Origin: an uncultured Eubacteriales bacterium
GTDB taxonomy: Bacteria > Bacillota > Clostridia > Christensenellales > Aristaeellaceae
Length of the DNA: 64,000 bases
Direction of reading: 5' to 3'
NCBI GenBank assembly: GCA_900315585.1
Contig: OMZP01000005.1
Coordinates: forward strand, 40,112 to 104,111
Shown: positions 39,255 through 64,000 of the stretch, one piece after another
How positions within the stretch are numbered: the first letter of the stretch is position 1
Layout: every line of letters begins with the position of its first letter
Made by a program: the position numbers and the translations under genes
The notes under the pieces: model-generated
Databases searched by the model: none
What the model was told of the DNA's origin: nothing
What the model saw: only the letters and a program-made list of their open reading frames with translations

Positions 39255-39255
39255 G

Positions 39256-39347: not shown

Positions 39348-39361
39348 ACGGGCAATATTGG

Positions 39362-40457: not shown

Positions 40458-41338
40458 CGTCCCTTATCCTCCTTGAAAATCATATTGATGATGATGGCGA
40501 ACACGAAGCACAGCACGATCAGCATCACGGCGATGGTGCTGCCCATGCCGTAGCGGTTGCGCAGGAACAGCAGGTTGATCATCAGCGTGCTGGGCACCTC
40601 GGTGGCGTGGTTCGGGCCGCCGTTGGTCAGCACGTAGATCAGGTCGAAGGATTTCAGAGAACCGGTCACCGCGAAGATCACGCTGACGCGCAGGATCGGG
40701 CGGATGTAGGGGATGATGATGTAGCGGTTCACCTGGCCCTCGGTGCAGCCATCGATCATGGCGGCTTCGTTCAGCTCCGGCGGCACGCCCTTGATGCCGG
40801 CGTACATCAGCAGCATGTGATAGCCCACGTACTGCCACAGGATTGGCACGAATGCCGCCCACAGCGCCGTGGTCTTGTCTCCCAGCCAGACGCGCGTCCA
40901 GCTTTCAAGCCCCAGCGACCTGAGAAGCAGGTTCAGCACGCCGTAGTCCGGGTTGTAGATCTTGATCCACAGCTGGCCGATGACCACGGTGGAGATCAGC
41001 ACGGGCATAAAATAGACGGACAGGTAGAAGCGTTCGCCCTTGGGCTTCTTGCTGAGCTTCAGGGCCAGCCAGAGCGCAAAGGGCAGCTGGATGCAGGTGG
41101 AGAAAAGCGCCAACAGCATGGCGTTCTTCAGGGCGCGCATGATGTTGATGGATTTGCTGGTGAACAACTCCTGGTAGTTGGCGAGGCCGATGAACTTCGG
41201 GGTGAGCAGGCCGTTCCACTCGGTGAGGCTGTAGTAGCCCGACAGGATGATCGGCGCGATGAGCACCCCGATGAAAAGGATCAGCGCAGGCAGCAGAAAC
41301 AGGAATATATTCAGCTTGTAGCTAAACGGTCTTCTCAT
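40454..41338 (-). CDS. carbohydrate ABC transporter permease (MalF-type)
   Basis: 6 TM helices. EAA loop ELNEAAMIDGCTEGQVNRYIIIPYIRP. Confidence 0.9.
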   Translation of the reverse strand: MRRPFSYKLNIFLFLLPALILFIGVLIAPIILSGYYSLTEWNGLLTPKFIGLANYQELFTSKSINIMRALKNAMLLALFSTCIQLPFALWLALKLSKKPKGERFYLSVYFMPVLISTVVIGQLWIKIYNPDYGVLNLLLRSLGLESWTRVWLGDKTTALWAAFVPILWQYVGYHMLLMYAGIKGVPPELNEAAMIDGCTEGQVNRYIIIPYIRPILRVSVIFAVTGSLKSFDLIYVLTNGGPNHATEVPSTLMINLLFLRNRYGMGSTIAVMLIVLCFVFAIIINMIFKEDKGR

Positions 41339-41358
41339 GGTCTGTGCTCCTTTACTGT

Positions 41359-41411
41359 AAAAAGAGGAGACGGCCCCTCACGGGGTGAACCCCGGTCAGG
41401 GCCATCTCCTC
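41359..41411 (-). terminator. intra-operon hairpin with U-tract between the binding-protein and permease genes
   Basis: On the minus strand: GAGGAGATGGCCC..GGGGCCGTCTCCTC followed by TTTTT. Confidence 0.45.
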
Positions 41412-41453
41412 ATCAACCTGGCTTAAATCGGTTTAATGCTCAAACCCTCAAAC

Positions 41454-42689: not shown

Positions 42690-42812
42690 GGGTTCTTCCT
42701 CCTTTTAGTTTGGCCCTCCAACGGTAGGGGAGCCTTTTACTTCAACGCGGTCGAGCCGCGTCAAGAAGTCGGCATCGGGCGGTTGCCGGTCAGGGCCTCC
42801 GCTTACGAAACT

Positions 42813-43155: not shown

Positions 43156-43370
43156 TAATATGATAAGGTAGAGGGCGTAGTGTACCCTTAGCCAGTTTCA
43201 TGGAAAGATACAGAGATGTTATTTCATGAAACACATCAACAGACTTTGGTCGGTATCAATTATAAACAAACCAAAGTCGAAAATTAGACATAAAATAGAC
43301 GTTGGTCGGTTATAGGCGAAATGAGCACAAAAGCGGTCTTCGGATTCCGACATGAAATGTGAGGGAGCCC

Positions 43371-46300
43371 ATGAAACATCGTATTGACGAAAACCAGGCA
43401 ATTCAGCGGCTGTCGCGGCGGGAAAACGCGTATGCAGCCAGCTTTGCTGCGCGTTCCAGCGGCGGTTATCGCAAGAAATTGAAATCAATGGGGAGGCTGC
43501 TTTCCGTCCTGCTGACGCTGAGCATGCTGCTGGATTCCCTTGTGATCCCGGTGAGCAGCGCGGCTTCTGCGGAAATCGTGCCCACGGGCGTGATGTCCCT
43601 GAGCGATGCCGGCACGGAACACGAGTTCGTGGCGGAAGAGGATGTCGAGGTCATGGACGACGTCGATATCGGCGGCGACGCCGGAAGCCTGTCTCCGGTG
43701 GAGGAAACGCCTTACATATATGAGGCCGGTTATGTTGACAGCTTCCTTTTCACTGAGATCGCCAGGCAGGTGAAGCTGCCCATCAAGGAGATCTCCGAAG
43801 TTGAAATGATCAGCGTGACGGGCAACGGGGAAGAGCTGCCCGTTGGCGCGGATGCCCAGGCCCTCGAGGCGACGGAAACGCTGTATGTCGAGCCCATCTA
43901 TAATGAAGACAACAGCGAGATCGCCGATTACGCCATCACGGCGCTGCGCGTCTTCCAGGAAGCGGGGCTGATGGTCTATACCGAAAACGACATGTTTGCC
44001 GTGCGTCTGGTGCGCCCGGACGACTACATGGACGTTCTGAATGCCCAGGCGGAGGAGCACAGCGACCTGCCCGTGGGCGAAGGCATCGACATCGAACCCA
44101 CCGAGGAACCGGTGGTAAACATCTATGATCTGAACGGCGGATCGTCCGTCATGCTCAGCGAAGTGCTGGTCGCAACCGGCCTGCCGATCGAAACGACCGA
44201 AGTCGGTTTTGTGGCGGTTCTGGGCGCCGGGGACGTGGAAAACTGGACGGAGCCTGTCTCCGTGGAACCGGTGGAAGGAGATTACCTGATCACCGCGCTC
44301 CGCGACTTCGATGTGGCCAACCTTGCCCTCTATGTGGGCGAGGAAACCCTTACCGTCTCCCTCGTCAATGGTATTGCCGCGCCCGTCGAGCCGGAAGCGG
44401 ACCTGACGGAAGAGGTTGTCGAAGTGCCGGCGGCGGTGCCTGCGGAGCTGCCCGTGGAGGAACCGGCCCCCGAACCTGCGGAGGAGATCATTCCCGAGAC
44501 GGGGGCGGAGATCGTTCCCGAACCTGTCGAGGAAACCGTTCCGGAAGAAGTCGAGGTCGACCTCGCTGCGCCGGAAGTGGAGACCTTGCCCGAACCCGTC
44601 GAGGAAACTGTAAACGGGTCTATAGAAGAAAACGTTCCTGAGATGGTTGTGGAGCCCACGCCCGAGCAGACGGAGGAACCCACGCCCGAGCCGACGGAGG
44701 AGCCCACGCCCGAGCCGACGGAGGAACCCACGCCCGAGCCGACGGAGGAGCCTACGTCCGAACCGACGGAGGAGCCCACGCCCGAGCCGACGGAGGAGCC
44801 CACGCCCGAGGCGACGGAGGAGCCCACGCCCGAGGCGACGGCGGAGCCCACGCCCGAGCCGACGGAGGAGCCTACGCCCGAGCCGACGGAGGAGCCCATC
44901 ACTTATCCGGCCCAGACCTTCACGGGCCGCTCCGCGCGCGTGCGCGTGGTCGCGGAGGCTCCGGAAGGCGCGTTCCCGGCGGGAACCCGCATGGTGGTGG
45001 TCCCCATCGTCAATCGCGACGTCCTCAACGGCTATGCCGACACCGTGGCGGATGACTTCGTGGAAGTGACGGACGTGCTGGCCGTGGACATCACGTTCTA
45101 TGATGCCGACGGCAACGAGATCGAGCCGCTGCTGCCCATCAGCGTGGTGATGTCCATTGCCGAGATCGAAGCGGAAGAGGAAGCGACGGTTCTCCATGTG
45201 GACGACGAAGGCGCGACGGAGATCGTCGAACAGGTCGAGGCAACCTCGACGGGGAACCGCCTGGCGCTGAACGTGGAGATGCCGTCTGTTTACGAACAGA
45301 CCGAAGTCGAAATTGAACAGACTGAAGTCGGTAATGAGACCGTGGCGGCCTTTGTAGCGGACGGATTCTCTACCTATGTCATCCTGGTGACCCGCACCAT
45401 CGAGACCCGTTACATCGACGCCAAGGGTGACACCTATCAGATCGAGGTCGGCTACGGCGAGGATGCCGGCATCTACGGCAATGTGGATCTGAGCGTGTCC
45501 GAGCTGACCGGCGAGGATGCGGAGAATTATTTCGACCAGGCGGCGGAGACGCTGGAAGTCTCCAGCGAGGCACTGGCTTACGCCAAGGCGCTGGACATCT
45601 CCATCCTCAGCGACGGACAGGTCATTCAGCCCCTGGTGCCCGTCAAGGTTTCCGTTCGCCTGCTGGATGCGCCTGAGGCGATTGAAGAAGAGAGTATCAA
45701 GGTGCTCCACTTCGGCGATGTGGTGGAGACGGTGGACTGCGCCCTGAACGGCGACACCGTGGAATTCGACGCCAACGGTTTCTCCATCTATGTCGTTGTC
45801 TGCACCACCCTCAGACAGACCCTGACTGCCAGCGACGGGAATGAATATTTGGTCACCGTGACGTATGATAATACGTCCGGAATCCCCTCTGACGCCGAGT
45901 TGTCTGTGTCGGAGATCAAAGAGGGAGAGGCTGGCTACGAGGAATATGTGGCGCAGTCCGCCGCCGCATTGGGTGAAAAGCCTGAAAATCTGGCGTTTGC
46001 GAGACCTTTTGACATTACTCTGAAGAATCCTGAGACAGGCGAGGAATACCAGCCGAATGAAGCTGTCCAGGTTAGTATTAAACTGCTTAAGGAAGATCTG
46101 AATAGTTATGCGTCGGTGGATGTTATCCATATCCCTGACGGGGCTGGAGAAGAGGCCCAGGTCATGGATACGACCGTACATGGAGAATCCGTTGAGTTCG
46201 AGACGGATGGATTCTCGGTGTATGTTTTGATTGGTAGTGACGGACAGACTGTTAAGCCTCAGAGTACGTATGCCTTCTGGATACCGAATCCCGATGCACC

Positions 46301-49300
46301 GGGAGATTATAAACAGTATTCCTTTACGGATTCGCAGGGCAATACGATTTTCAAGCAGACGATAACAACCGAAGACGAACTTGTGATTCCTCAATTAACC
46401 TCCACAGATACAAAGGATTTCGCAGGCTGGTACGCAGGCAGCATGATCGGCGGTACGTTGACGTTGGAATCACAGCCCTATGACTTTGGCAGTATTACAA
46501 TCGCCGAAAACAGTGCGGTCGATCTTTACGCCGTCTATACGAATTATGCCACGGTCATTTTCCATGACCAGTATGACAGCGGATCCGGAACCTTCCCGGT
46601 GGCCTATACCCGGAGAGCGGAGTTAGTGACGGATGGAGAGGAAACCACAGCAACGGTAAAAATCAGCGATCTCAGTACAACCTATACCAGCAGCGGCGGA
46701 GCAGATATGGCGTTCTTCGGATGGTCGGAGACACCGATTACCACACCCGGCGCGGCAAAGGATGATACAGGAAGTACTGTCGCAGCTATTTCCGTGGATG
46801 CGGAAGGCTGCATCACGATCACTGGGGAGAAGCATCTCTATCCGATCTACAAAGAAGTACATCAGCTGACCTACTATACGGCGCAGTCTGGGCTTAGCGC
46901 TGCGTATGTACCTCCTGCACAGTTTTTCGCGGGAGATCCTGTGTCATACGATAACAATGGCACGACTGTCTACTCTCTGCCTACCACATCCCGCGACGGC
47001 TACACATTCCTTGGGTGGTGGACAGGTACGCTGACCACCAATGGCGATGTGGAAACCGTCAACTATGGTGCACAGATAACGGGACCCGATGGAAGCCTTG
47101 TAGCGACTGCGGATGACGGCGGAGTGTATATCAGTGAAGATATGAATGTACGAAAGCTGTATCTTCGCTCTGACGCTGTGCTGTATGCGAGATGGGAAGC
47201 GTCCTACAGTATTGTCTACTGGAAACAGGTCACAACAGAGACACCCGACACTGCTGTCAAACACTATGAGTATGCGGAAACAGTGACCAAGACCGCGCAG
47301 ATCGGAGATACTGTTCAAGTCCTTGATTCGGATCGCGCCAACGACCGCTATGGCACCGGCTTTGTCCTCGGTCATTATGACGCTTCCGCAGTGATCGGAA
47401 ACACCAAGGAGCTGACGGTTCTGAATGTGTATTATGATCTGAGTGCGGAATATGAAGGATCCACGGAGCTGCATACATTAGCGTTCAGGGATTCTGTAAG
47501 CGGCGCAGGAATCAGTGCGGACCTGCCGAAAGAATACGCTGATGCCATCGTCTACGGTACGTCTCTTCTCACCGGCAATAATGGAGGCAGCTATATTCCG
47601 AATGATCCGATATCAGGACGGAAATCTGATGCCGGCAATGAGATCTACAGCTTTTCCGGCTGGTATTTTGATGAGAATTGTACGATCCGTGTTTTCTTTG
47701 AGAACCCAGATGCCAAAGAAATCGCGGAGCTTAATGGGCAGAAATATGTAGTTGTGGCAACCATGCCCGATCACGATCTCACTCTTTATGCTGGTTGGAC
47801 GGCGATAAAATTCCGAGTTGATATCGACCCGAATTATGGCGCACTGTATCCCGAAGAAAACGATCCGTCCGGCACCGGTGCGACCTATTTTAACAACACC
47901 TATGACGCTGAGCCCATTGGTGAATATACGCATGTAACCCGCGATTATGTGGAATCCAGTTCCGGCACCTGGTACTACGTAAAACATGATCGCGCATATG
48001 GCGGAGATCGTCGTACCTACTACACTCAGAATCCGGCTCTTGCCACGGAAGATACCACCTTTGAATATGCCCCGGGTGTTTACACCTATGTGGGCTGGTA
48101 TGAAGTGTATCTGGACGCAAATGGCAACGAGATCGGTGAGGCCGCTGAGCCTTACAATTTCAGCCAGCACACCGATCATAACACCAAGCTCCGGCTCCAC
48201 TGGAAGAAGGCAGGAACCTACTATCTTGCCTATGATGCAGGCGATGGGACGCTTGAAGACGGAACAACAAAGAGCGTTGTTCTTCCAAGCGGTTATGCCG
48301 ACTATGCTGATGTTGTCCTGACGCGGTCTGCCATTGCGCCAACGGGATACACCTTCATCGGCTGGCAAGTGCGTGGCAGCGACAGCGGCGTGATTTATAC
48401 GCCGGGTCAAGCTTTTACCCTCCATGCGGATGACGCGAAGCGCGTCAGCGGCAAGGATGTCGTCTATCTGGACGCAGCCTATGCGAAAGTTGGCACGGCC
48501 ACCATCGTCTATAACGCCAACGGCGGCACAGTAACCGAAAGCGGTGTGGATTTCGGTTACACCTATGATTCCTCCAATGTGGAGGTGGCAGCGCCCGGCA
48601 CGATCGATGCTGATGCCGGAATCGCCACGGTTTCAGGGCTGGCCAACAACAGCAAGTTCAAACTGAGCGGCGGCACCGGATTCACCGCACCCGCAGGCTC
48701 CGATGCAACTTTCCTCGGATGGAGCGACAAGGCCGTCTGCGACGATTCCGCGATCTTCTATTCCAAGGACAGCAATGTAATTTATGGCGTCTCGGAATCC
48801 ACCACTCTTTATGCCGTCTGGGGCGCTCAGGTGACCTATAACCTCAACAGCACGGATGCTGCTTGGGGTAGCGATGCATGGGATTCCGCAGTCTATACAC
48901 TAGATAGTGCAACAAACAGCTATTCTCAGACCGCGAATCTCGGAACCGTTGTTTCCGAGCCTGTACATGTTCCGGTTTATACAGGCTCGGATGGGCGCCT
49001 GTTCCGTTACTGGGCAACGAGAGCCGCCACAGGGGACGAAGCGAATCCGTATACCTATACAGAATACAATTTCTCGCAGCCGATAACGGGTGCGCTGGAT
49101 TTGTACGCCTATTGGAGCGGAGCGAACACCATAACCGTCCATGCTGTGGACGCATCTGATGCGGTTCTGGCAGATAAAACCGGTGAAACAGGATGGACGG
49201 TCTCGAACGTCACAGTGTCCGCTGCAGAGACCGTACTGAACGGCACAAGCCATGTGACGGAGACTCCTGAAAACTACGAGTTTGCCTTCGTTGCAGTTGC

Positions 49301-52300
49301 GGGTGACCTGGATTCCGTTTCCGAAAGCAATGCGGTCACGGCAATCAAATACGAGAATAAAAAAGTGCTCGTAAAATACAAGGGCGAGTCGTCGTTCAGA
49401 GTCCTCGGCGAGGGCAGAGAACTATATTTCGTATACTATGAGAAAAAGGCTCTGAACATTGGCTACAAGAGCATGGAAGCAAGCGGTGTGCTTGCGGACG
49501 TGACAACAACCGGTGCACCTGCAAATACTGGCGAGACGCTTCTTGGCGAATACAATATGTCGAGCCAGCTTTCCACCCCTCTGAGCCTTGTAACCGGATT
49601 CACGAACTACGCCTATGCCATCGGCAGCACCGATCCAGGCAGCGAAACGCAAATGAATGCTTCCAACCTGAGCCTCATCACAAACACGGCTGGCGCAACC
49701 GATACTGTCCCGGCGCTTCGAGTCAGGAACACTTGGCGTGGATTTGAATACGCTACGGAAACCGGGGACGACGCGGTCTGGACGAGTTGCGGATATGAGC
49801 CTCAGCTTTATGTGATCTATTATACCCAGCAGCCTACCGTGGTCATGTTTGACGAAAAGACAGTCGGCACTGGCACTGTCATGGATACACCCTTTACATT
49901 TAATCTTCTGGTGACGCAGGCTATCACAAGCACAGCGTCGGTGCAGACTCAGGTTAAAAATGGAGCCGGAGAATGGGAGAATAGCGGTGAGCCGACCGTA
50001 ACAACAACCACAGGTGATCTAACCACTGTCTTTGATACAACCGCTTCTGGAAATCAGCCCTATATCCTCAAAAACGGTGAGGCCAACTCGTCGATCCTGT
50101 TCTACAGTTCTTCGGTACAGATCGGCGAGCCTATAGAAGTTGATGAAAACACTCGGACTATAACTACCACAACAACGGTGACTGCTCAGACCGCCAAGCT
50201 CACGCAGACGGCGAACGACTCTTTCACAACCGCGATCGACGTAGACGGCACAGCCTATACCGAATCGCCCAATGTGTACACCTATACGGCGAACGGCTCC
50301 GGCGGCACCATCAACGTGACCTTTACCAACACCCACAAATCCCTCCCGGTGGAAGTCCATGTGGCCATGGTGGAGAATGACGGCACCAGCGGCGGCATCA
50401 TCCAGCGGGATGGTAGCTTCAGAAGCACCACGGAAGCGAATTACAAGTTCGACCTGGCGTTGGGAACAAGCGAGACGCTTCTGACAAAGCTGCCGTCTTC
50501 TGCTGTTTTCACAGGCGATACAGATACCTATGCCTTTGGAGCCGTCATGTCCGGTATCGGTGCGGAAGGCACTGCCATCACGGTTGGAAGCATGGGCGTT
50601 GCATCGATTGCCTATGAGCCAATCAGCGGCAATATCTATGGGCTGGTGCTGAAAGACAGCGACGGGAATACGATCAGCGAATTGGGCAGTAACCAGCTTT
50701 ACTACCTCTACTATCCCATGCCCAAAATCCGTTACGTGAAGGAAGCGGCTGACGGGACGCTGACGGACATTACGGGCTGCCTTCCGAACGCCCAAACCGG
50801 CGTTATCGAGGCAAGCGACTCCGTTACCTATAGTCATGCCCTGCTCACCATGAACGGAAAAACCGTTGAACAGAACGAGAGCTTTGAGATTCCGCTCTCC
50901 GGCTTTGTCATCAGCCAGAGCGGGAACAACTTCCGTATGCCTCCCGTGCTGGACGATGACCTGTATGAGCGGTATCTGAGCTATGTGAAGCTTGGCGCGG
51001 GTAGTGGAGGAGCGACGAACAGCTCCGAATTGGATGTCAGCACCGGACTCACTATGCAGCTCAAGGTGCAGAACAATACGCTGCAATACAGCTTTGACGG
51101 CACGACATGGACGGATCTTCCTCTCTCCGGGACGCCGACCATCTATGCCATCTATACCGAGCGCGGCTACGATTTCCAAATCAGCAAGACGGTGGATACG
51201 TCCGAGAGCGGTGAGAACGCGATCTTCAGCAACGCCAGCTTTACCGTAACCATTAGCTCGGATGCAATCACGAAGGACAGCTATGATGCGGAGGGCGCGG
51301 AGAGCGCGACAGTCACGGCAACTCCTGCCGACGGAACTACACCGGGCACGATTACGCTTACCGTGACGGACGGCACGAAAGTGCGGATCAAGGGCCTTGG
51401 CCGGGGCGACTATACCATCACCGAGAGCGGGAACGAGAACTACGATTTGACGGCGAGAACCGGATCCATCGTGGGAAGCTCCACCAGCCCGATGACGGTG
51501 ACGGATAATACCACGGTCTCCTTTACACTGGATACGGAAAAGAAGGTTGACCTGACCAACAGCCCGAAGGCGATCTGCAAAATTGACGACCATTATTTCT
51601 ATACCCTGCGGAGCATGGTCGAATATGTGGACAGTGAAATCGCCACGAAGACCGCCACCGCGGAGATGCTGACGGATTACCTGATGCCCGCAGCGGATAC
51701 CGTGGAGATTCCGAATGGGTGCGATATCACATTAACCACAGCGGAGAGCGTTGGCCGAGTGGCTGTGATTACCAGAACGGATGACCTGGCGGATGTGTCG
51801 CTGTTCACCAACAACGGTACGCTGACAATTGCGAACCTGACCCTGGAAGGCAGTTCCGTAGTAGCTACCGCTCCGATGATTCAGAGCGCTGGCGATTTGA
51901 CCGTCGGCTCCGGTGCGACGATTCAGAACGTCGTGGGCGGCGGTGCAATCAACGCAATAGCCGGGAATATCACCGTCAGCGGAACGATCCAAAAATGCAG
52001 CGCGGCTGAGGGCGGAGCCATTCACCACTCCGGGAACAGCACCATCACCTTGAACGGAACCGGCACGATTCTGAACAATACCGCAACCACCTATAACGGC
52101 GGCGCGATCTACCTCGCAGGCGGTACGGTCAAAGTTTCCGGTACGTCCAAAATAACCGGGAACAAGGCTGAATCTGGGAACGGCGGCGCGGTGTATTGCC
52201 CCGGCACCGTTGTGATCGAGCTCGACCAGGGCGGAAGCGTAACAAACAACACCGCGAAAGAGGGCGGCGCGATCTATGCCGAGACCGGCGCGATCAGCAT

Positions 52301-55300
52301 TTCTAAAACAGCAGAGAATGTCAGTCCGGCGATAACCGGGAACACTGCCACCACCGGCAACGGCGGCGCGATCCATGTGGGCACGGGCTCGGTATCTGTC
52401 TCTGGCGGCAGCGTGTCGAGCAACAAGGCCGAGAACGGGCTGGGCGGCGCGATCTATGCGAATGCGGCGTCCGTCACGGTCTCCGGGACAGCGGAAGTCA
52501 AGAGCAATAACGCGAAAGAGGGCGGCGCGGTGTATGCCGTCTCCGGCGCGGTCGAGGTCTCCGGTGGCGCAGTGGATAACAATACCGCTTCCACCGGCAA
52601 CGGTGGCGCGATTTATGCGGGCAGCGGCCACGTGACGCTGTCCGGCGGCAGCGTGTCCGGGAACAGGGCGACGGCTGGTAGCGGTGGCGCGGTGTATGCG
52701 GGCATCGGCAATGTGACGGTGTCCGGCGGCAGCATGACCAACAATACAGCCAAAACGGACGGCGGCGCGGTCTGCGCGAACAGCGGCAGCATCACCGTGT
52801 CCGTGCCCGACGGTGGAACGGCTGAGACTATCCAGGGCAACACCGCCACCACCGGCAAGGGCGGCGCGCTCTATGCCGATTCCGGCGCGGTCTCGATCAC
52901 GGGAACCACCCTGACCGGGAATACAGCCGGGTCTGACGGCGGCGCGGTGTATGCCGGAACAGGGGCGGTCACGCTCACAGACAGCGTCTTTGGCGGTGCT
53001 ACAGCGACCGACGGCAATACCGCTGGCGGCAGCGGTGGCGCAATCTACGCGGGCATCGGCAATGTGACGGTGTCCGGCGGCAGCATGCAGAATAACAATG
53101 CGACCGGCGGCAACGGCGGCGCGCTCTATGCGGGCAGCGGCGCAGCCACTATGTCAACGGTTACCCTGTCCGGCAACAGCGCGGCGACGGGTAAGGGCGG
53201 CGCGGTCTATCTGGACAGCGGCTCCCTCACCCTGACCACGGTCACCGCCACCGGCAACAGCGCCGTCAACGGCGCGGCGATCTTCACGAATACCGGCAGA
53301 GCCAGCTTCAGCGGTGGTTCCTATACGGGCAACATTGCCTCCAACGGTGGTGCTGTGGGCGTAGGGAACAAGGACGCGCGGCTGTATTTCACCGGCGATG
53401 TGCAGGTCAAGGACAATAAGCTCGGGACAGGTGACGACGCGCCCAAGAGCAACGTCTATCTCGACCAGGATGACGACGCCGTCATCAATATCGACACGCT
53501 GGGCGGCAACGCAGCCATCGGCATCTATGTTGCGGATAGCGTGGAGAATACCCGCGGCGTCCCCGGCGCGAGGTTTGCGGTCTACACCAGCAACAGCAAT
53601 GTAAACAAGATCACCAATGACCGCTACACGTCCCTGACGGTTCAAAGCGACACCGCGGCGAAAAAGCTCTATTGGGGCAACTCGATCAAGGTAAATGTTC
53701 ATAAGCTGGATTCCTATGGCAGCGGATTTGCGCAGCCGGCGTCTTACGGCGCTGGCACGCAGTTAGGGAAATACGACACCTATTATCCGGAGTTCAGTGA
53801 TGCGGCGCTTTCTGAGCTGGCTTCGGAGCTGGTGGTTAAAAATAGCCTCAACATCGGTACGAAGGTTTACGCCGCCGCGTATCTGGACGGCGTGCGAAGC
53901 TTTGGGGATTACATCACCGAACTTAAGTGGGACAAGGAAGCTTCTGAATGGTATGTCACGACTCGAAGCGGCGATAAGGTTTACTTGAAGAAAACGGATG
54001 GCACGGGCTACCACAGAATTTACATCTATTATGCTGAGCCGGCCTACCTCTCCATCGAGAATAACACCGACAATGCCCTGACCATCAGCAGCATGACGGT
54101 AGATGGCATCAGCGTGATCAATAGCAACACTGTGGCGGGCTACGGCATGGTTTTTGCCAAGAACGGCGCCATCCGTACCGCGCTGCTGCCGATCACGGCG
54201 GACGACCTCAAGCTCGCGGCGGGACAGTCCGTCAATCTGCTGATCCCCGGCGGTCAGAACATGGCCTATACACTGGATGGCAGCTTTGAGACAACGACGG
54301 GCGGCAGTGTCAGACTGCGCCGGGGCGCTGAATCCAGCCTCAGTGAAGAGACAGTGACAGTTTCTGCCACGGACGGCTCCTTTAATCAGCTTTCAGGCAC
54401 AACGCGGAATGGTTCGGGAACCTATAACATAATATTTGGTAATGATAAGGTTATCTGCAAGGTCGTGGATGCTTCTGGAGTCGAGCATCCGTACAGCAAG
54501 ATCAGCAGTGCCATCGCGGATATTGTTGCGACGACGGGAGCAAACCCGCCCTATACACTGACGACGGCAAAAACAGCCACCATTGAGATGGTGACGGATT
54601 ATCTGCTGCCGACGTCCGATCATGTGTTGATCCCTCGCGGATATGATATCACTCTGACTACGGCTGCGCCTGAGGGTACAGAAAGAGTTACTTATACTTA
54701 TCATGGAGAATCTGCGGATGGCCGAGCGATTATCAGCCGCGATTCAGAGAATAAGTATTCCATGATTGACGCCTGGAACTCCGCGTGGAATGTTAATACC
54801 GGGACCGGAACTGATAACGTGAATGCGTTGGATAACACGGTCCTCAAAATCAGTAAGCTTGTTCTGGATGGGAAAAGCGTCCGGGGCGAAAGCGACGGCG
54901 GCGCTGTTGCATCCAAGTATGTCAACGTATATATTGATACGGTCGATTTTAAGAATGTGTATGCCAGCAATGGCGGCGCAATGCTGATCATGTTCTCTGC
55001 GAAGGATAAGAATAATAAAGACACCGTACCGAATACGCTTCTTGATGTAAAGAATTCCAACTTTACAGGCTGTACTTCTTGGACAACAGAAACCTCCAAC
55101 CGTCTGGGCGGCGGCGCCATTGTGACGAATGCTGAGACGATGACGCTTAAAGACTGCAATTTCACCAACTGCACCGCTGTCGACCAGGCGGGCGCGGTGT
55201 TCCACCGCGTAGATAAGAATAACAATTCCTGGACGACTGTCACCGGCTGTACGTTTACAAATTGCTCTGCCAGGGCAGCAGGTGGCTTGGAGCTTGACTC

Positions 55301-58300
55301 TAAGACGATTACGGTTACAGGTTGTACATTCAATCATTGTCAGGCTACAGAGCGTAATGGCGGCGGCTTCAACGTCTGGGCCCTGAACAGCGGTACGTCC
55401 AGCGCTGATTGCTGGGTTACGGTTACCGACTGTGTCTTCAACGACTGCCAGGTGACGGATACCAAGAGCAACGGAGGCAATGGCGGCGGCTTCCGCAGCA
55501 CCTCGGTCTACACCGTTGTCAAAGGCTGTACTTTTACGAACAACACGGGGTATTATGGCGGCGGCTTCTGCGTTTCAAACACCAACGCGAAGAAAGCGGA
55601 AATCTACGGTTGCACATTTTATCGGAACACCGCCAACCAGGGCGGCGGCATTCTGGTGAAAGCGAAAGAGATCATCGTCGGAGATTATACTTATACGGAT
55701 TCCAGCGGTGAGCATACGCGCCATACGGAGATCAAGAACTGCACCTCGAAGCAAGAGGGCGGCGGCGGTATTCGCCATGACAGAGACGTGAACGGATCGT
55801 CGCTGAGTATTACGAATGCCGTGATCAGCGGCAATGAAGCACAGTCTTCAAGCAAAAACGGTGGCGGCGTCTTTACCAACGCCAGAACTGTGACGATTGC
55901 AGGTTCCACCATCACTGACAACACTTGTACAAACAAAGGTGGCGGCGTATACGCTTACAGCTATACTTCAATGACCATCACTGATTCCGATATTTCCAGA
56001 AATATCGCGTCCAGTGACGGCGGCGGGGTGTGGTTCGACGCGAATAACGATACCAACCGGGCCCTTCAGGTTCTGACCATCAAGGGCAGCTCTATTGATG
56101 GGAACACCTCCAATGGAAGCGGTGGCGGAATCTATACTCTTGCCAAGACTGTGACCGTTGGAGCCAGCGAGACAAGAACTGACAGCGACGGTAATGCCGT
56201 CCGCTCCTCTGTTTCCAACAACACCGCAGCGACCAACGGCGGCGGTATCTATCAGAGCAGAAATGTGGATGGCTCCAAGATGGAGATCAGTGATACCAGC
56301 GTCAGCGGCAACAAGGCCAGCAATGGATCCGGTGGCGGCGTCTATGCCGGTGTGCGGACACTTGAGATCACATCGGCAGAGATTTCCAGAAACTCGGCAA
56401 CCAGTGACGGCGGCGGAGTCTGGTTCTATATTAAAGATACCGGTGCTTCTATGGAGCTGACCGTCGAGGGAAGCACTCTGGACAGCAATACCTCTAGCGG
56501 CAACGGCGGTAGCGTCTATACCATAGCCAAGAAGGTGGACGTCAAAGCACACACGGAAGGCAGCACAATAACTAAATCCGAAATTTCTGGCAGCACAGCG
56601 GCCAAGAACGGCGGGGGAATTTACCAGTACTTGGATGTTGAAGGCTCCGCGCTCACGATCTCCGATACGATCATCAGAAACAATACCGCCAATGGAACAG
56701 GGAATAACGAGCTTGGCGGTGGCGGCGTGTATGCCAATGTCCGGAACATGACCCTCACCTCTTCGGAAGTCAAGGGGAATACTGCGGCAAAACACGGTGG
56801 CGGCATTTACAAAAATAGTGAAGGCAATGACCGTTATTTGATCATTGATAATTCCAGAATTATGGGCAATACCGCCGGAAATCAAGGCGGCGGCGTCTAT
56901 GACAAATCCCAGCTGACCCTCCGCAACAACACCGAGATCACCGGAAACCGCCTGACCACGAATACCGCAGCGAATTGCGCGGGCGTGTATCTGAACAACA
57001 ACCGCACGCTGTTTGTCGGTTCGGAGGGCGCGGCGACGGATACCATCATCGTCCGCGGTAACACCACGGCCAACGGCACACTCTCAGACCTCCGGCTGTG
57101 GGACAACGGCTCAGAAAACAATGCCCTCAGCACCTATGTCTACTGCAACCTGAGTAGAGATAGCGAGATTCGCGTTGTCAACGCGGCGAAGGTGAGTACC
57201 TGGTTTGGCAGCGCTGAGATTGAATACCCGGATGGATTTGACGATGAAAACGCGGTGTTCAAGGCGGACAGCAGCACGCTGCACGGCATCATCGATCGAA
57301 CGGACCCCAACAAGAAGAAGATCATCTGGGCCGGTCCGCCGATCGCGAAGCTGACCGACGCAAACGGGACGCTGCTCTACATCAAGTATAGTGAAGAAGG
57401 AGCCACCTATCCGGCCATCTTTGACCGCCTGGATACCGGCAATGGCAGCGCGGGTAGTATGGTCAGCCCGTTCAACATGCTGCGCATGAGCGATCTGACG
57501 CTGTATTACAAGGACGGAACGCCTTACACGGGCACGAATTCCAGCCTGGATTATTGCGTGAAGATGCTGGTGGAGACGTATGAGACCGCCGCTGATATTA
57601 CGCTTCCGTACGTGGAGGGAAGGACGGTAACATTCACCACGGCGGGCAAGTACGATGCAGACTATCCCTTTGAGGGGAGAGCCGGCGGGCGCGCTACTGT
57701 GATTCGCGCCTATGCAGGCTCAACCAACAGAACTTTGATGAATGTTAACGGAGATCTGATTCTGGAGAATATCATCATAGATGGCGGTACAGAAAACGGC
57801 ATTGCTGTATCCGGCAGCACACGGTGCATGTGGATTGACAATTCTTCCTGCACGGTCACACTCGGAGAAAACGCTGTGCTGCAGAACGGCCACGTCAATA
57901 CAAGCAACGACGGCGGCGGCGTGTATGTCAAAACTGGTGCATTGAAAATCAGTGGCGGCGTCATTCGAAACTGCGCAGCCAGAAACGGCGGCGGTGTATA
58001 TAAGCAGGGCGGTCAGGTTCTGACTTTGGAAGCCGGCAGCATTTATCAGTGTACTGCCACCGGGAAAGGTGGAGGCGTATACCTGAATGGCGGCAGCTTC
58101 AATATGTCCGGCGGCACGATCAACGGCGGCCGGGCGGATCAGGGCGGCGGCGTGTATGTTGTGAACAATGCCAGCGTTCCGTTTAACATGTCCGGCGGCT
58201 CGATCATCAACAACAGCGCTGCCACCGCGGGCGGCGGCATTGCCGTTGAAGGCATCAACTCGCGCCTCTACTTCTCCGGCAAGGTGAACATTTCCGGCAA

Positions 58301-61031
58301 CACCTGCGATGCCATCGTTGCGAAGAACAAGGCTTGCAACGTGGAGCTGAATAAGGATTCAAACGCTGTCATAAACACAAATAACGGTGGTTTGTACGCA
58401 GGTTCCTATATTGGCGTATATGTGCCGAATGGAACGTCTCTTTATGACAAACACGGTGCGGAACGCAAGCCCTTTGGTACCTTTGTTACCGGCGACAACA
58501 CCGCCACCTTCTACAGCTTTGTCAATGATCGAAATGGTCTTAAGGGTGGCATTATTGAAAACCCGAGTCCCAATACAATCTACTGGATCCAAATCTTCTC
58601 CCTTGAGGTCAGCAAGGAGGTTGAATCCGGCGATTCGACAGCGATCGATTCCGATGAACAATTCCTGTTTAAGGTGAATATTCGTGGGAACGCGACGGTT
58701 ACGGGACAGTTGAACGCCGCGCAGATCGACAGCGATGATGGCGAATATGGCGAGATGCATTTCGACAGCAATGGGAGAGATACTACAACAGCCGTTTTTG
58801 CTCTAAAGGACGGAGAATCGATTACGGGCGTCAACCTGTCGGAGGGCTTGAAGTATGAGGTGATCGAGTATCTGACGGTTGAGCAGGCTGATCGTTATGC
58901 GGCCATGCCGATGAATGGGTACAATCTGACAACAGAATCCCTGACGTATAATGGTACTACTTATCGGGTAATCAAAGCAAATACCTATACCAGCACCATC
59001 GGCGAAAACAAGAGCAGATCGGATGTGGATCCGTACACTTCGTCGTTGAAGTTTACCAACCTGATGCCCGTCTGCAAGATTACGGATATGAGTGGAAACC
59101 TACTGTACCGCAGATATGACTGGGATAAGGTAACGAATAAGACTGGCGAAGGAGAGGATGGTGGAAGCAGCACAAATCAGCCGTTCTACTATGCGCCCGC
59201 AGTCTATACGGAACTGACTGGAGATGACGGCGCGTTCAAAGCACTGGAAGGAACACTGTACACCTCCAACGGTAGTAACCCGACGAGCTATTCCGTCAGC
59301 AACGGTGTTCAGATTCAAATGCTGATTGCTGATTACAGCCTGTATGGGTTGGTTGCAGCCAACACGAGCAAAGCCACCTTGACTACTGCTTCCTCTGGTG
59401 ATGCCTTGTTCCCCAAGCAGGATGCTGGAACTACGTCCACGATTCGCCGTGCATTTGCGGATGACTCCATGTTTAACGTGACTGGCGATCTGACGCTTTC
59501 AACGATCATTCTTGACGGCGTGAAGGGTTCTTATATGATTGAAGCAAATGGCGGAATTGCAAATGTCCAGAGTGGCGGTAAGCTGACCATTCAGAGCGGC
59601 GCAGTGCTTCAGAACTCCAGAAGCGCTGAGAACTATTATGGCGGTGCGGTGTATGTCGCAAGCGGCGGCTCTGTCACCATGACCGGAGGTATGATTAATC
59701 GGAATGAGTCCGTTGACAATGGCGCAGGCATCTATCTCGCCGAGGGTAGCACGCTCAAACTCTCTGATGCTCCCAGCTTCGGTGGTACAGGAAGAGACGT
59801 CAGCGGAAATATCACCACGACTAACGGCAACTTCAAGACCGGTGATCTTGTTGCTCAAACAAATGGCGGGAAAGCTTATTCCAAAGCTCGCCAGGACATC
59901 TACATTGCTGAGGCTCAGGATGATCCGGCATCTGTCGTTCTAACCGGAAACCTGAATGTTGACGCTGGATCAATCTGGGTCTGGGCTGCAACGGAAAACC
60001 ACTACGCAATGATGAAGCCCTTTGCCACTTTCGCGAGTGGAACGGTCAATGGAAACACATATGCCGCTTTCCGAAATGCGCAGCCAGACGGTGTGACAAA
60101 CTGCGGAGAGGACAATTACCTGTCTGGCAGTTCCGGAGAAAATGCCCTGTTTATTTACTGGGCTGGCGGGTTCGATGTAAGCTTCAAGAAGATTGATGGC
60201 TTTGGAACGGCAATGTCTGGCGCGACCTTCACGCTGTATACGGACTCGGCCTGCACAGAGACGCTTAAGCAGGGAGGTTCGGACGCGGCTGCCGTATCCG
60301 CTGACGGAACAGCAACATATAAGGACAAAACCGGAGCAATGCTGGACGCAGGCATTGTTCTCTTCGAGCAGATTCCCGCCGGAGTCTACTACATGAAGGA
60401 AACGGTCACCCCTGATGGCTATATCAACGCCCTGACAAAAGATGTCTCTGGTGATCCTGTGAGTAATGTGTACATGGTTCTTGTGGGCGATGCTGCCCTG
60501 CAGGGCGCGGGAGTCGATGTACTCGTGAACATTACACAGGAGCAGATCATCGCTCAGACGGGAACAGGGGATGATAAGAAGGATGCGGCGATCTTCTTGA
60601 TCGATCCGTCAACCAGTTTGGCCGTTGCTACGCCCGACATCGCCAAGTACGGTATCATGAACATCAGCACGGCGCAGCGCAAGGCGATCTTAAGGAAGGT
60701 GGAAGAGAATACATATAAGCCACTGCCCGGCGTTGAATTTGAGGTCCTCCGCTACGACAGAACGCTGGTTTCCAGTACAGACATCAATGGAGATACTGTA
60801 ACTACCTTTACCAGCGGTGCCAGCGGTGTGTATTTCATTGACATGCTGCCCTACGGTACCTATTATATGGAAGAGACGACCGTGCCTTCCAGCTACGCTG
60901 AGCCTGAGAAGCGCTACGCGTTCACAGTGGATGAAAACGGTGTTTCGGAAATGAGGGAGACGGCGGGCTTGACCCTCACGAACGAGCTGCGCCCCAATGC
61001 CAGCGACGCGATCGTCACACCCACGACGTAG
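43371..61031 (+). CDS. giant secreted multi-domain surface protein (5,886 aa): Pro/Glu linker, Listeria-Bacteroides-type repeats, four parallel beta-helix super-modules, Ig/Cna-B-like domains; no recognisable anchor
   Basis: ATG at 43371 lies 5 nt after GAGGGAG. There is a single uninterrupted frame to the TAG at 61029. Recognisable repeats include GYTFxGW/LYAxW and GGAIY/GGGVY beta-helix coils. SpaA-like domains are present (GATFTLYTD...[16 protein letters not shown]; GVEFEVL...[15 protein letters not shown]). Confidence 0.9.
44652..44900 (+). repeat. 24-nt tandem repeat (ACGGAGGAGCCCACGCCCGAGCCG, about 10 copies) encoding TEEPTPEP
   Basis: In-frame units at 44670, 44694, 44718 and so on, with few substitutions. 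Confidence 0.9.
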
Positions 61032-61923
61032 CCCACTCCGACGCCGACGCCCACTCCGACGCCGACGCCCACTCCGACGCCGACGCCCACTCCGACGCCG
61101 ACGCCCACTCCGACGCCGACGCCCACTCCCTCCGACGCCGACGCCCACTCCGACGCCGACGCCCACTCCGACGCCGACGCCCACTCCGACGCCCACTCCG
61201 ACGCCGACGCCCACTCCGACGCCGACGCCCACTCCGACGCCGACGCCCACCCCGACGCCGACGCCCACTCCGACGCCGACGGCAACACCTGTACCGAGTC
61301 CTGGTGTCTACAATCATGAACAAGAACCGGAACAGATTGTTGGAGACTGGCTTGATCTCTATATTGTATCGGAAGTGAACAACCGACAGTTTTCGTTAAG
61401 AGATTTGCCGTGGGCATTTAATGTTACATCGAATCAGGAGTATGTTACATTTGATGGAAATAAGGGGATCATTTTTAACGGCGAAGGGAGAGCTACTGTA
61501 ACTTTGACATGCAAACAGGACGTTTGGGTTGATAATGTAGAGTACTTCAAACAAGGCGATACATATACGATAGAGATTGATGTAAAGCAGGGAGAATCCA
61601 GGGGAGTTTGTAGCGGCTTTGTGCTAGGTAATACATGGAAGAATAATGGAGATGATTTTGCACAGTATTACCTGACGTATAAGAATGATTCAAAAGTCGG
61701 AATAAACTCGATTACTGTTCCGTTCAAGGTGAAGCGAGGTACGGTTCGGTATGTGACCGGCAATGCCACAGGCAGCGTTGAAAACGGTATCGTATATGTG
61801 ACGTTTAGTAACTATGGAAACGGCCTTGTTCCCGATCAGGAAGTCGGATTCGAGATTCAGATTGTAGGCAGCGATGATCCGAGAATCGAGCCCTTGGAAA
61901 CGGAGACAGGTATTGGAGATTAA
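60997..61923 (+). CDS. orphan ORF: Arg-rich/PT-repeat N-part plus a beta-rich domain of about 210 aa; probably a detached C-terminal module of the giant ORF
   Basis: Frame +1 relative to the giant ORF. No signal peptide and no convincing RBS. The ATG at 60997 lies inside the giant ORF. See findings. Confidence 0.4.
61032..61281 (+). repeat. 18-nt tandem repeat (CCCACTCCGACGCCGACG, about 14 copies) encoding PTPTPT, with a 4-nt insertion at 61130-61133
   Basis: Starts directly after the TAG of the giant ORF and in the same frame. One unit reads CCCACTCC-CTCC-GACGCCGACG. Confidence 0.9.
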
Positions 61924-61964: not shown

Positions 61965-62612
61965 ATGAATCAAATAAAACGCAAATTGCGGTCCCGGAGG
62001 GGAGCGTCCATCACCTTTGCGCTGCTGATCTTCCTGGTGTGCTCGATGGTGAGTATTGCGGTGGTCGTGGCCGGGTCAGCGGCCGCGGGGCGGATGAGCC
62101 AGCGTGCGGAGACCGACCAGCGGTATTACGCGGTCACCTCCGCGGTGGAGCTGCTCTGCGATGATTTCAAGGGAAAGACCGTGACGGTGGTGTACGAGAA
62201 GGGAGACCTGGCCTCGATATCCGCTCAAAGCGTAGATAACAATGCTATCTTGGAAGAGGTATCGAAGACGCTGGTCAGGAAGATTGCCAGCGAGCCGGAG
62301 TCTTCGGCAACGCTGAGCCCGGACGACATCTTTAGCCTGACGACAGATGGGCCAGCGAACTCCGCACTCGACTGCACCATCAAGGCTTACGTGCATAAGG
62401 ATGGCCGTGTGACGTTCGAGGTTTCCAACACGAACACGGATGACTCGACCAAGGTTTATACCCTCCAGACGACGTTTGAGGCCAATATCAGCGAATCCGT
62501 GTCGCAGTATGAGGATCCCTCTTCCAGCGAACCAACGGTGAAGCAGAGGGTCACGACGAAGCTGACCTGGTCCCTGAACAGCGTCCGGAAGGGCAAGGTC
62601 GGGACCGCATAA
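61965..62612 (+). CDS. pilin-like protein lacking Glu5 (PilX/GspK/ComGG-type minor pseudopilin candidate)
   Basis: RBS AGGAAGGTGA. MNQIKRKLRSRRG-ASITFALLIFLVCSMVSIAVVVAG, then RYYAVTSAVELL, similar to PilX N-domains. Confidence 0.6.
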   Translation: MNQIKRKLRSRRGASITFALLIFLVCSMVSIAVVVAGSAAAGRMSQRAETDQRYYAVTSAVELLCDDFKGKTVTVVYEKGDLASISAQSVDNNAILEEVSKTLVRKIASEPESSATLSPDDIFSLTTDGPANSALDCTIKAYVHKDGRVTFEVSNTNTDDSTKVYTLQTTFEANISESVSQYEDPSSSEPTVKQRVTTKLTWSLNSVRKGKVGTA

Positions 62613-62651
62613 CCGCATCCACTCTGAATTGACCGAGAGGAGGCCGCTGCG

Positions 62652-63014
62652 ATGGCAGTCTGGAAGAATCAAAAGGGAAATGCCCTCCGGCGCAAGCTGC
62701 GGAGCAAGCGCGGCGAGACGATCGGCGAGACCTTAGTGGCGCTGCTGATCTCCGCGCTGGCGCTCGTGATGCTGGCGGGAGCCATCAGCTCCACGGCGAA
62801 TATGATCAACGCCAGCGATAAGAAGATGGGCGAGTACTACAGCGGGGATGCCGCGCTTGCTGAGCACAGCGGCGGCGATCCTTCGGGGAATATGGTCGTG
62901 ACGATCCAAAGCGACAGTGATGCAAACATAAATAATGATTATAGTGTTCACTTTGATACGAACAAAGCGTTTGAAGCTAAACCGGTGGTTGCCTATAAAT
63001 GGCAGACGCCGTAA
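62652..63014 (+). CDS. small type IV pilin-like protein (Glu at +5, atypical +1 Glu)
   Basis: [12 protein letters not shown]. ...RKLRSKRG-ETIGETLVALLISALALVMLAGAI. 120 aa. Confidence 0.55.
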   Translation: MAVWKNQKGNALRRKLRSKRGETIGETLVALLISALALVMLAGAISSTANMINASDKKMGEYYSGDAALAEHSGGDPSGNMVVTIQSDSDANINNDYSVHFDTNKAFEAKPVVAYKWQTP

Positions 63015-63020
63015 GCTGGA

Positions 63021-63731
63021 ATGAAACAGTATCGACGGAGCAACAACGGCACAGAGATCGGGCGTGAGACGATGATGAGACGCGAAAGAACAGCGAAGGG
63101 AACGGCGCTTGGCAGGGCCGGGAGCCGGACCATGCGTATGCTGCGAAACCGGAGGGGCTTCTCCCTGGCGGAGACCCTCCTGGCTGTGTTGATCCTGCTG
63201 CTGGTGTCCATGATCGTCGCCAACGGCATGCCTGCGGCCACGAATGCCTATAACAAGGTCATCCTCGGCGCCAACGCCAAGACGATGCTCTCCACGGCGA
63301 TCAACGCCCTGCACGACGAACTCGGGACAGCCTGGAGGGTCAAAAACTCTGCGGACCACAAGTCTCTGATTTACTTTAATGCCAGCACCGGTGCACAGTC
63401 TGAGATTTCTCTGGACGATAGCGGGAAGATTCAAGTGCAGGATTACGTTGCATTGGGAGCAATCGATCTTGTCCATGATGTAGACACAGCCACGACTGTG
63501 AAGCAGGGGAATGTGCGCGAACTGGTGTCCGAAGCAGGAGCTAACGGCCATCCGACCATGTATGCCACATTCGAGTCGATCTATTTTGATGAGTCCACAG
63601 GTGTTGTCAAGGTTACAGGTTTGAAGGTGCTCAAAGTATCTGATAACACACCGCTCGCTTCGTTTGTAGACAAAGATAGAAATGATCTCGTTTTCGAGAT
63701 CCGGGTCATTTCCAATGATTATATAGATTAG
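63021..63731 (+). CDS. type IV pilin/pseudopilin-like protein with canonical prepilin motif
   Basis: ...MLRNRRG-FSLAETLLAVLILLLVSMIV (GFxxxE). The true start may be the ATG at 63132, which gives a short leader MRMLRNRRG. Confidence 0.75.
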   Translation: MKQYRRSNNGTEIGRETMMRRERTAKGTALGRAGSRTMRMLRNRRGFSLAETLLAVLILLLVSMIVANGMPAATNAYNKVILGANAKTMLSTAINALHDELGTAWRVKNSADHKSLIYFNASTGAQSEISLDDSGKIQVQDYVALGAIDLVHDVDTATTVKQGNVRELVSEAGANGHPTMYATFESIYFDESTGVVKVTGLKVLKVSDNTPLASFVDKDRNDLVFEIRVISNDYID

Positions 63732-63733
63732 GT

Positions 63734-64000
63734 ATGGTGTTGAACATGATGAAGGGTTTTAGGCGCGTGATCGGCGCGAAACATAAAACAGAACATCCGA
63801 GGCGAGGCGGGGAGCGGCTGAACAGGCGGCGCGTCGCCGGTTTCACGATGGCTGAACTGCTGATCGTGGTGGCGATACTGATCGTTCTGATGGGGGTCAC
63901 CTTTGTTGCCGTGCAGAGCCACCAGAAGTCGGTGACTCAGCTTCAGTATGACACCATCGCAAAGGAAATCTTTGTCGCCGCGCAAAACCACCTGACCCTT
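63734..64000 (+). CDS. type IV pilin-like protein with canonical prepilin motif, 3' end cut by window edge
   Basis: Not in the ORF track because no stop is reached. Read from the sequence: MVLNMMKGFRRVIGAKHKTEHPRRGGERLNRRRVAG-FTMAELLIVVAILIVLMGVTFVAVQ... The frame is open to nt 64000. Confidence 0.75.
   Translation, partial: MVLNMMKGFRRVIGAKHKTEHPRRGGERLNRRRVAGFTMAELLIVVAILIVLMGVTFVAVQSHQKSVTQLQYDTIAKEIFVAAQNHLTL

Follow-up and report, generated by a model that had tools for sequence, protein, structure and literature searches.

A minor-pilin cassette at the head of a type IVa pilus operon in rumen Clostridia and its recurrent association with giant adhesin genes

How can a cell with a single membrane hold on to a surface protein of about 600 kDa that has no recognizable anchor? 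The question is raised by a 64,000-nt stretch (hereafter the window) of contig OMZP01000005.1 (assembly GCA_900315585.1), from an uncultured Eubacteriales bacterium. A gene for a giant adhesin (43359..61031, plus strand; about 5,890 amino acids [aa] from a GTG start in the list of open reading frames [ORFs], 5,886 aa by the gene caller) is followed there by four pilin-like genes, which we call A, B, C, and D. An initial annotation, made from the sequence alone, had proposed that the five genes form one module in a Clostridium. The host is not a member of that genus; it is a high-GC (0.63) rumen Clostridia metagenome-assembled genome (MAG). Rumen fermentation rests on the ability of cells to attach to plant fibre and other cells, yet for most rumen Clostridia the surface machinery is little characterised. 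Here, we find good support for A-D being the minor pilins of a retractile type IVa pilus, encoded at the head of its operon. We also lean towards a further reading, in which A-D form the tip complex of this pilus and the giant is an exchangeable adhesin that the complex presents, probably through D. If giants ride type IV pili, this would explain how Gram-positive cells hold and deploy anchorless 600-kDa adhesins, and it would extend the “carrier plus effector” logic of PilY1 from diderms to monoderms.

Are the four genes really pilin genes? The ORF list and the sequence agree on four same-strand, pilin-type genes after the giant, and a regular-expression search of all six frames of the window returns exactly four pilin-type N-terminal motif sites, those of A-D. 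A (61965..62612, plus strand; 215 aa) is a Glu5-less pilin-like protein and a candidate cap (K-position) minor pilin; its N-terminus reads RRG/ASITFALLIFLV, followed by DQRYYAVTSA. B (62652..63014, plus strand; 120 aa) is a small minor pilin starting with KRG/ETIGETLVALLIS, and C (63132..63731, plus strand; 199 aa) is a canonical minor pilin starting with RRG/FSLAETLLAVLILLLV. The window holds the 5' end of D (89 codons, 63734..64000, plus strand; start at 63734 or 63746), a modular type IV pilin with the N-terminus AG/FTMAELLIVVAILIVL that continues past the window end. The motifs quoted in the initial annotation match the sequence exactly and its gaps of 41, 39, 6, and 2 nt are correct, the first being counted from the end of an “orphan” ORF (61923) and not from the stop codon of the giant. 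The composition it gave also stands in that one protein is Glu5-less, one small, one mid-sized, and one large, all of them pilin-like. Only the label of D as “major-like” does not, since D is an 831-aa modular minor pilin. That A-D are type IV pilins is seen in the N_methyl/TIGR02532-type N-termini of D, C, and part of the B family, and in the helix and sheet predicted for A and D.

Which machine do these pilins serve? An exact-sequence look-up of A allowed us to extend the contig to a 118-kb ENA scaffold of a STEW18 sample (locus L001). The search for PilB, PilC, and PilD genes past nt 64000 that the initial annotation had advised found all three on this same contig, together with PilT and PilM. 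D is followed on the plus strand, each time after a short gap, by a PilB-type ATPase (MshEN and T2SSE domains; 586 aa), a PilT-type ATPase (T2SSE; 349 aa), and a PilC/T2SSF platform protein (406 aa). Further on, on the same strand, come a conserved protein of 234 aa whose hydrophobic N-terminus is pilin-like (L001 18414-19118, between PilC and PilD), an A24 prepilin peptidase (PilD; Peptidase_A24; 266 aa), and PilM (PilM_2). No intrinsic terminator is predicted on the plus strand from the end of the giant to PilM. The presence of PilB, PilT, PilC, the prepilin peptidase, and PilM after D identifies A-D as the minor pilins of a type IVa pilus in a monoderm. Hence, A-D are not an orphan pilin module; they head a standard type IVa pilus operon. 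The 234-aa protein of L001 starts with RGG/VNRLIVILLALIAVMLVIIAIPKW..., lacks Glu5, and belongs to no Pfam family; homologues with 33-69% identity occur in most machinery-bearing loci.

A relative, L020, has the order pilB, pilT, pilC, a gene for a 135-aa canonical major pilin (MKKNNKGFTLAELLIVVAII...), A, B, C, D, the homologue of the 234-aa gene, pilD, pilM, and pilN-like and pilO-like genes. In relatives with PilN, PilO, and a major pilin, the only minor pilins of the cluster are A-D. L001 and L020 together thus hold the parts that define a type IVa system (PilB, PilT, PilC, PilD, PilM/N/O, and a major pilin); the canonical major pilin is known from L020, and none was seen for the genome of the window itself. 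Could the genes belong instead to a Com pseudopilus for DNA uptake? It is true, as the initial annotation had pointed out, that nothing resembling comGA or comGB precedes the set, but PilB, PilT, PilC, PilD, and PilM stand directly after D. C and D give weak NCBIfam matches to the N-termini of ComGC, ComGD, ComGE, and ComGF. Yet these matches span the shared alpha1 alone, and their scores are far under the equivalog cut-offs (ComGD 21.5/70, ComGC 19.7/75, ComGE 17.7/49, ComGF 12.8/80). Com systems also lack the PilT and PilM found here and the PilN and PilO found in relatives, and A-D are several times larger than ComGD-GG. We therefore rejected a Com pseudopilus, on the ComG scores and the PilT and PilM of the operon, and give it next to no probability.

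How regularly do these pilins occur with a giant? The 680 homologues of A are without exception unnamed or “hypothetical”; for D, clustering at 50% identity (E <= 1e-30) gives 678 groups, which carry the NCBI label “type II secretion system protein”. This work defines a large unannotated pilin family in ruminant-gut Clostridia. A species-level scan, with one genome each, gave 67 loci, nearly all from ruminant-gut MAGs. The hosts are Oscillospiraceae, Ruminococcaceae, Lachnospiraceae (Butyrivibrio, Blautia), and Christensenellales, plus Mogibacterium, Solobacterium, and one Eggerthellaceae bin. A-B-C-D with typical N-termini are present in essentially every locus having enough flank. Already in the first three contexts (A identity 60%, 43%, and 41%), giants of 7,932, 5,562, and 5,484 aa are followed by A, B, C, and D.

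We counted arrangements in the 57 non-redundant loci whose upstream flank spans 3 kb or more. In 30 of them, an ORF of more than 1,500 aa (mostly reaching past the edge of the 10-kb flank) lies on the same strand and ends at most 260 nt before A. In 5, the giant lies 0.9-3 kb upstream, with an insertion, an orphan piece (the window itself), or D in between. All upstream giants (35/57) are homologous to that of the window, with C-termini colinear with its residues 5238-5890, and in the directly adjacent loci the orientation is fixed and the giant-to-A spacing is 27-260 nt. A giant homologue stands directly after D in 2 loci (L062, L071), D is fused in frame to giant-type sequence in 2 (L058, L072), and in 1 (L069) D has another kind of extension and reaches at least 2,725 aa. 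The remaining 17 have no large partner within 10 kb. The order of the genes can vary, since L091 and L070 (the latter probably continued by L046) read giant-D-A-B-C. Downstream of 14 giant-linked cassettes there are no machinery genes for at least 3 kb, which indicates that the giant travels with the pilins and not with the machine. Two MAGs, RUG12424 and RGIG6928, have two different giant-plus-cassette modules each. The survey of relatives thus bears out the coupling put forward in the initial annotation: the arrangement recurs in dozens of divergent MAGs, far beyond chance, with a homologous giant upstream in most loci, and some D genes are fused to giant sequence.

There are three such fusions (L058, L072, and L047, the last from the short-flank group outside the 57), and in each the complete D reads on, without stops or Ns, into giant-type sequence. 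The conserved C-terminal HYGDWPxPE of D passes straight into giant-type repeats. The fused parts are homologous to residues ~695-2743 of the giant (62% identity to residues 692-1149 in L072), and the fused pilins have at least 2,800 aa. The finding of giants beside or fused to the cassette in many relatives suggests that the pilus carries the adhesin. Split and fused forms could serve as a natural experiment on the mounting of bulky cargo on a pilus and its passage through peptidoglycan.

How could such a pilus be built? By analogy with H/I/J/K-type minor pilins (PMC10191384), A-D would be cleaved by PilD, whose A24 peptidase gene is in the same operon. The cleaved pilins may then assemble at the membrane, by analogy with GspH-I-J-K and PilH-I-J-K, into a fibre-priming complex that finally occupies the tip, and the Glu5-less A would sit on top of it. 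D is bulky and modular, with a predicted pilin head, Ig-like domains, and a GLUG beta-helix; like PilB of Streptococcus sanguinis (PMC8179133), it would be exposed and compatible solely with a position at the tip. The giant would be exported by Sec and, judging from gene linkage and the D-giant fusions, presented by the tip complex, on which it could be mounted most simply through D. It would be an optional and exchangeable part, the monoderm, mega-sized counterpart of the tip adhesin PilY1/PilC. A bolder version, in which the four-pilin tip complex acts in rumen Clostridia as a universal carrier of interchangeable mega-adhesins of 2,000 to more than 7,900 aa, docked non-covalently or fused to D, can be put forward only tentatively.

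The presentation of the giant by the pilus tip has to be weighed against several observations that speak against it. L055 (RUG14431) is the closest relative and is syntenic on both sides: window positions 34583-42704 correspond to L055 1504-9333 at 82-94% aa identity, and its PilB and PilT are 97% and 93% identical to those of the window contig. It has the same operon, yet its A-D are merely 41-58% identical and the giant is absent. Of the 57 cassettes, 17 have neither a giant-family neighbour nor a giant-sized D. A reverse test gave a similar picture. The first alignment for this reverse synteny scan was too divergent; a metagenome scan with the C-terminal 330 aa of the giant returned mostly generic human-gut Cna-B proteins and six informative loci. 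Among the informative loci, only L091 has a cassette downstream, and the relatives L076 (83% identity) and L077-L080 have none, two of them with 7-8 kb of flank. From these five cassette-less giant relatives we conclude that the pairing is frequent and specific but optional. The initial annotation had stated that its proposal would fail if relatives had the operon without the giant gene; this was found in part, with a closest syntenic relative that lacks the giant and giant relatives that lack the cassette.

The sequences of the proteins add further points of this kind. Pairwise identities of D and of the giant C-terminus correlate weakly (r = 0.40), in a way that is inseparable from shared ancestry, and mirror-tree-style identity correlations among A, B, C, D, and the giant C-terminus are uniformly weak and uninformative. 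In the fusions the giant is joined through its N-terminal side, but conservation in the split form is confined to its C-terminus, which is a generic Cna-B pair. The N-termini of the giants have nothing conserved past the Sec-type signal peptide, and no docking element was found in them. Nor did the giants reveal a conserved N-terminal docking domain that the covalent link would replace in the fusions; the N-termini have only the signal peptide in common. Furthermore, A has no match to pilin hidden Markov models (HMMs) or solved folds, and the H/I/J/K assignment is therefore an analogy, short of demonstrated homology. Short-read MAGs are the source of all data.

Could giant and pilins simply share a place in the genome? 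A-D would then be ordinary minor pilins, and the giant an independent surface or matrix adhesin that has often landed in the same variable, horizontally exchanged “adhesion island” where the pil operon begins, with common regulation at most. An operon without giant in the closest relative, the 17 cassettes without a large partner, the giant relatives found elsewhere, and the lack of any docking motif in the N- or C-termini of the giant are all as expected under such co-location, and so is the low-GC, exchange-prone character of the block (see below). It is nevertheless difficult to reconcile with the way in which giant and A-D are kept together, in 14 loci without nearby machinery and across several families of Clostridia, in fixed orientation and with gaps of 27-260 nt. 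Giant genes are rare, so that their presence in 35/57 loci is far from chance, and three independent in-frame D-giant fusions show such adhesin modules displayed on a pilin. We thus regard mere co-location as unlikely and keep to the tip-presented adhesin.

The composition of the block points to frequent exchange. GC is 0.52-0.59 in A-D, and in the giant where present, versus 0.63-0.66 in the flanks and the machinery, in the window and in L055 alike; the giant of the window has 0.553 against 0.634 in its flank. The low GC, together with divergent A-D inside a conserved operon, suggests a hypervariable, probably horizontally exchanged island. The block of giant and A-D has probably been swapped between genomes while the adjoining machinery stayed conserved, which points to cassette replacement. 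In L007/L014 (7212-9936; an Oscillospiraceae MAG), the giant and A are separated by an AAA-ATPase_like/PDDEXK_9 gene and two small ORFs. The giant of this locus is 64% identical to that of the window but its A only 41%, which suggests that giant and cassette recombine independently.

A different role for the same pilins would resemble that of a type II secretion system (T2SS). A-D would form a pilus or pseudopilus working as a piston that pushes the folded 600-kDa giant through the peptidoglycan, after which the giant would be released or retained by the wall. A Sec signal without an anchor is consistent with this, and there are suggestive cases elsewhere. The secretion of BsaC in Clostridium perfringens depends on the pilin PilA3, for which a T2SS-like role was proposed (PMC11580942), PulA-type T2SS substrates are encoded beside gsp genes and PulA is counted as a “tip-located effector” in the review by Pelicic (PMC10191384), and giant genes of Omnitrophota adjoin T2SS-like loci (10.1101/2023.11.21.568195). 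However, PilT here and the canonical major pilin of relatives are marks of a true retractile pilus, D has an adhesin-type module of its own, and the giant part of the fusions is covalently a pilin subunit, for which release is impossible. We consider a secretion piston quite improbable, and below we follow the adhesin at the pilus tip.

What can be said of the single pilins? The initial annotation had likened A to the cap pilins GspK and PilX. A indeed shares with these the lack of Glu5: its motif G/ASITF, with Phe at +5, is kept across 85 homologues, in which G13-A14-S15 is invariant and DQRYYAV conserved. For this likeness, every HMM and fold search is negative. Neither the window protein nor its 85 relatives have a match to any pilin family in Pfam or NCBIfam (PilX_N, T2SSK, and ComGG included), the A profile has no match among PDB sequences, and the GspK alpha-domain is not present. 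The best Foldseek match of the A model to solved structures has an E of 0.04 and a template modelling score below 0.2, with no pilins among the matches. Lacking a similar solved structure, the label “GspK/PilX-like” is not confirmed, and what is left for it is the absent Glu5 and a pilin-like predicted fold. We rejected the assignment of A to GspK, PilX, or ComGG, as HMM, PDB sequence profile, and Foldseek searches all failed to find them. The leader, Gly, and alpha1 of A align with those of B (hhalign 95%, E 2e-8) and C (91%, E 1e-6), with the Gly in register, and AlphaFold2 (AF2), run on the 85-sequence alignment, gives a confident pilin-like model (predicted local distance difference test [pLDDT] 88) in which a long alpha1, spanning residues 11-68, is accompanied by a beta-sheet.

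B and C are more conventional. The motif of B, G/E(S/T)I(A/G)E, has Glu at +1 and +5 and is conserved in 39 loci, of which 7 have an N_methyl match; a weak NCBIfam match to the N-terminus of XpsI/GspI is far under the cut-off. B aligns with C (hhalign 96.5%, E 8e-10). The longest ORF of C, from 63021, has 236 aa, and its start is most likely the ATG at 63132 (MRMLRNRRG..., 199 aa), because the leaders of relatives have 10-15 residues and the gene caller picked the same start. From there, C has the motif G/FSLAETLL and scores 21.2 bits for N_methyl, equal to the gathering threshold; it also reaches the TIGR02532 cut-off, and 36/39 members of the C family match N_methyl. Against PDB, the matches of the B and C profiles are confined to alpha1 (for C, the alpha1 of solved pilins).

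D is the most elaborate of the four. On the same contig (ENA locus L001) it reads to a full length of 831-833 aa. It has the motif G/FTMAELLIVV, an N_methyl score of 24.5 bits (gathering threshold 21.2), and a GLUG motif in Pfam, and its profile matches the alpha1 of solved type IV pilins in PDB (geopilin, PilA, PilE, and S. sanguinis PilE1). The AF2 model (pLDDT 84) has alpha1 (helix 37-90), a pilin head, Ig/FnIII-like domains, and a beta-helix of ~260 residues. The non-pilin part resembles structures of streptococcal IgA1 proteases (E 1.7e-6, ~550 columns, in the beta-helix part), a match that is consistent with the GLUG motif; no catalytic HExxH was seen on reading the sequence, and no motif scan was run. 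The N_methyl and GLUG matches, the AF2 layout, and the IgA1-protease beta-helix match show that D fits the modular-pilin definition of Raynaud et al. (PMC8179133), namely a pilin module with non-pilin modules. The size of D across loci is 750-890 aa. In L013, L018, L042, and L067, D reaches 1,400-2,130 aa by tandem duplication or triplication of region 280-830 (Ig-like domains and GLUG beta-helix). The best 150 D relatives from a representative library include about a dozen forms with 1,380-1,620 aa, a single one with 2,102 aa, and no fusion above 2,700 aa; a homologue search with the D-giant junction as query gave no matches.

Has such a system been described? The closest counterparts are the diderm operons for minor pilins and PilY1/PilC (fimU-pilVWXY1E of Pseudomonas aeruginosa, clusters 1-3 of Myxococcus xanthus, and PilHIJK with PilC of Neisseria). 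These also have four minor pilins, one of them Glu5-less, with a large, non-pilin, Sec-exported adhesin that is modular and variable. Like PilY1/PilC, the giant is not a pilin, has a Sec-type signal, and is encoded beside A-D on the same strand in 35/57 loci. M. xanthus has multiple minor-pilin/PilY1 clusters, several sets in one genome, as RUG12424 and RGIG6928 have two modules each. The differences are that the host is a monoderm, that the partner gene is optional, that the giant lacks the PilY1 beta-propeller and is about five times larger, and that A-D match no PilV, PilW, PilX, or FimU model. Two reviews (PMC10191384, PMC6916266) describe non-pilin tip effectors in diderms only. If the tip-presented adhesin is real, the giant would be the first such effector of a monoderm type IV pilus, with a retractile motor behind a ~600-kDa adhesin, and the fused forms would include the largest pilin subunits known.

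Other systems share parts of this picture. The PilA/PilB/PilC tip complex of S. sanguinis (PMC8179133, PMC9934059) belongs to a monoderm type IVa pilus and has adhesion modules grafted onto minor pilins, and D fits this pattern. It has three minor pilins as opposed to four here, and only here is there a separate non-pilin partner. The largest modular pilin in the survey of PMC8179133 has 860 aa, a size that D equals or exceeds (750-890 aa) and that the fused forms (at least 2,800 aa) leave behind. The tāpirins of Caldicellulosiruptor (10.1101/359786) are beta-helix adhesins beside a type IV pilus locus, with no known anchor and a suspected functional tie to the pilus. They fall far short of the giant in size, sequence and fold comparisons detected no similarity (the fold comparison being that of D, whose top 50 Foldseek matches include no tāpirin structure), and there are no reports of their fusion to a pilin or of a conserved pairing with one particular minor-pilin cassette. 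The GspH-I-J-K set of the T2SS likewise has one Glu5-less, one small, one mid-sized, and one larger pilin, and B has its faint match to XpsI (GspI); here, however, there is no secretin and no outer membrane, and A has neither the alpha-domain of GspK nor a fold match.

In Omnitrophota, giant surface-protein genes stand consistently beside a type-4-filament-like locus with small class III signal peptide genes (10.1101/2023.11.21.568195). Those hosts are diderm, ultra-small predators, and their proteins exceed 30,000 aa and have many transmembrane segments and SecA-like domains. The hosts here are monoderm rumen Clostridia, and a soluble adhesin of beta-helix and Cna-B domains is paired specifically with a four-pilin cassette. 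A literature search turned up neither the cassette nor its combination with giant Cna-B/beta-helix adhesins, and no pilins reaching 2,800 aa. The initial annotation knew of no described system pairing a giant adhesin with minor pilins; the Omnitrophota case qualifies this in part, as to giant genes beside pilin-type systems. Omnitrophota and tāpirins are the two partial precedents for what is otherwise a new take on the theme of minor pilins and a tip adhesin.

The giant itself consists of a Sec-type signal peptide, a PT/EP linker, Listeria-Bacteroides repeats, several parallel beta-helix blocks, a DUF7601, and two C-terminal SpaA/Cna-B domains. Pfam matches on the whole protein are limited to Flg_new, PT, DUF7601, and SpaA; no PilY1 beta-propeller is among them, and the C-terminus is the Cna-B pair. 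The initial annotation had seen no LPXTG, SLH, or transmembrane anchor on the giant; none turned up here either, nor on its relatives, whose C-termini finish with a Cna-B domain followed by a short tail that has neither LPXTG nor a transmembrane segment, and the TAG of the window giant sits where the giants of relatives also stop. Some giants (L003, L011, L018, L031, L036, and L040) end in a short Pro/Gly-rich tail, PxG(T/S/A)G(D/E), which may be a recognition tag; that of the window does not have it.

Between this TAG and A, three-frame translation of the plus strand shows a PT-repeat tract and a beta-rich “orphan” domain (61032..61923). The frame of the giant continues past its TAG as (PT)16; 4 additional nt (CTCC) near 61127 then put the PT repeat into the +1 frame, which leads into the domain of ~200 aa. 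This domain has only weak Ig-like Pfam matches and a GC of 0.431, and it was found in no other cassette locus, being unique to the window contig. The ENA scaffold has a run of N within the same 18-nt repeat. The stretch is probably what is left of another surface-protein gene, or else a mis-assembly of the repeat; it is outside the conserved module. We rejected the orphan domain as a docking piece, since it occurs in no other locus and its GC is 0.43. Finally, long minus-strand ORFs overlap the PT repeat (60690-61417) and A-C (62076-63551); they are by-products of high GC and repeats, not genes.

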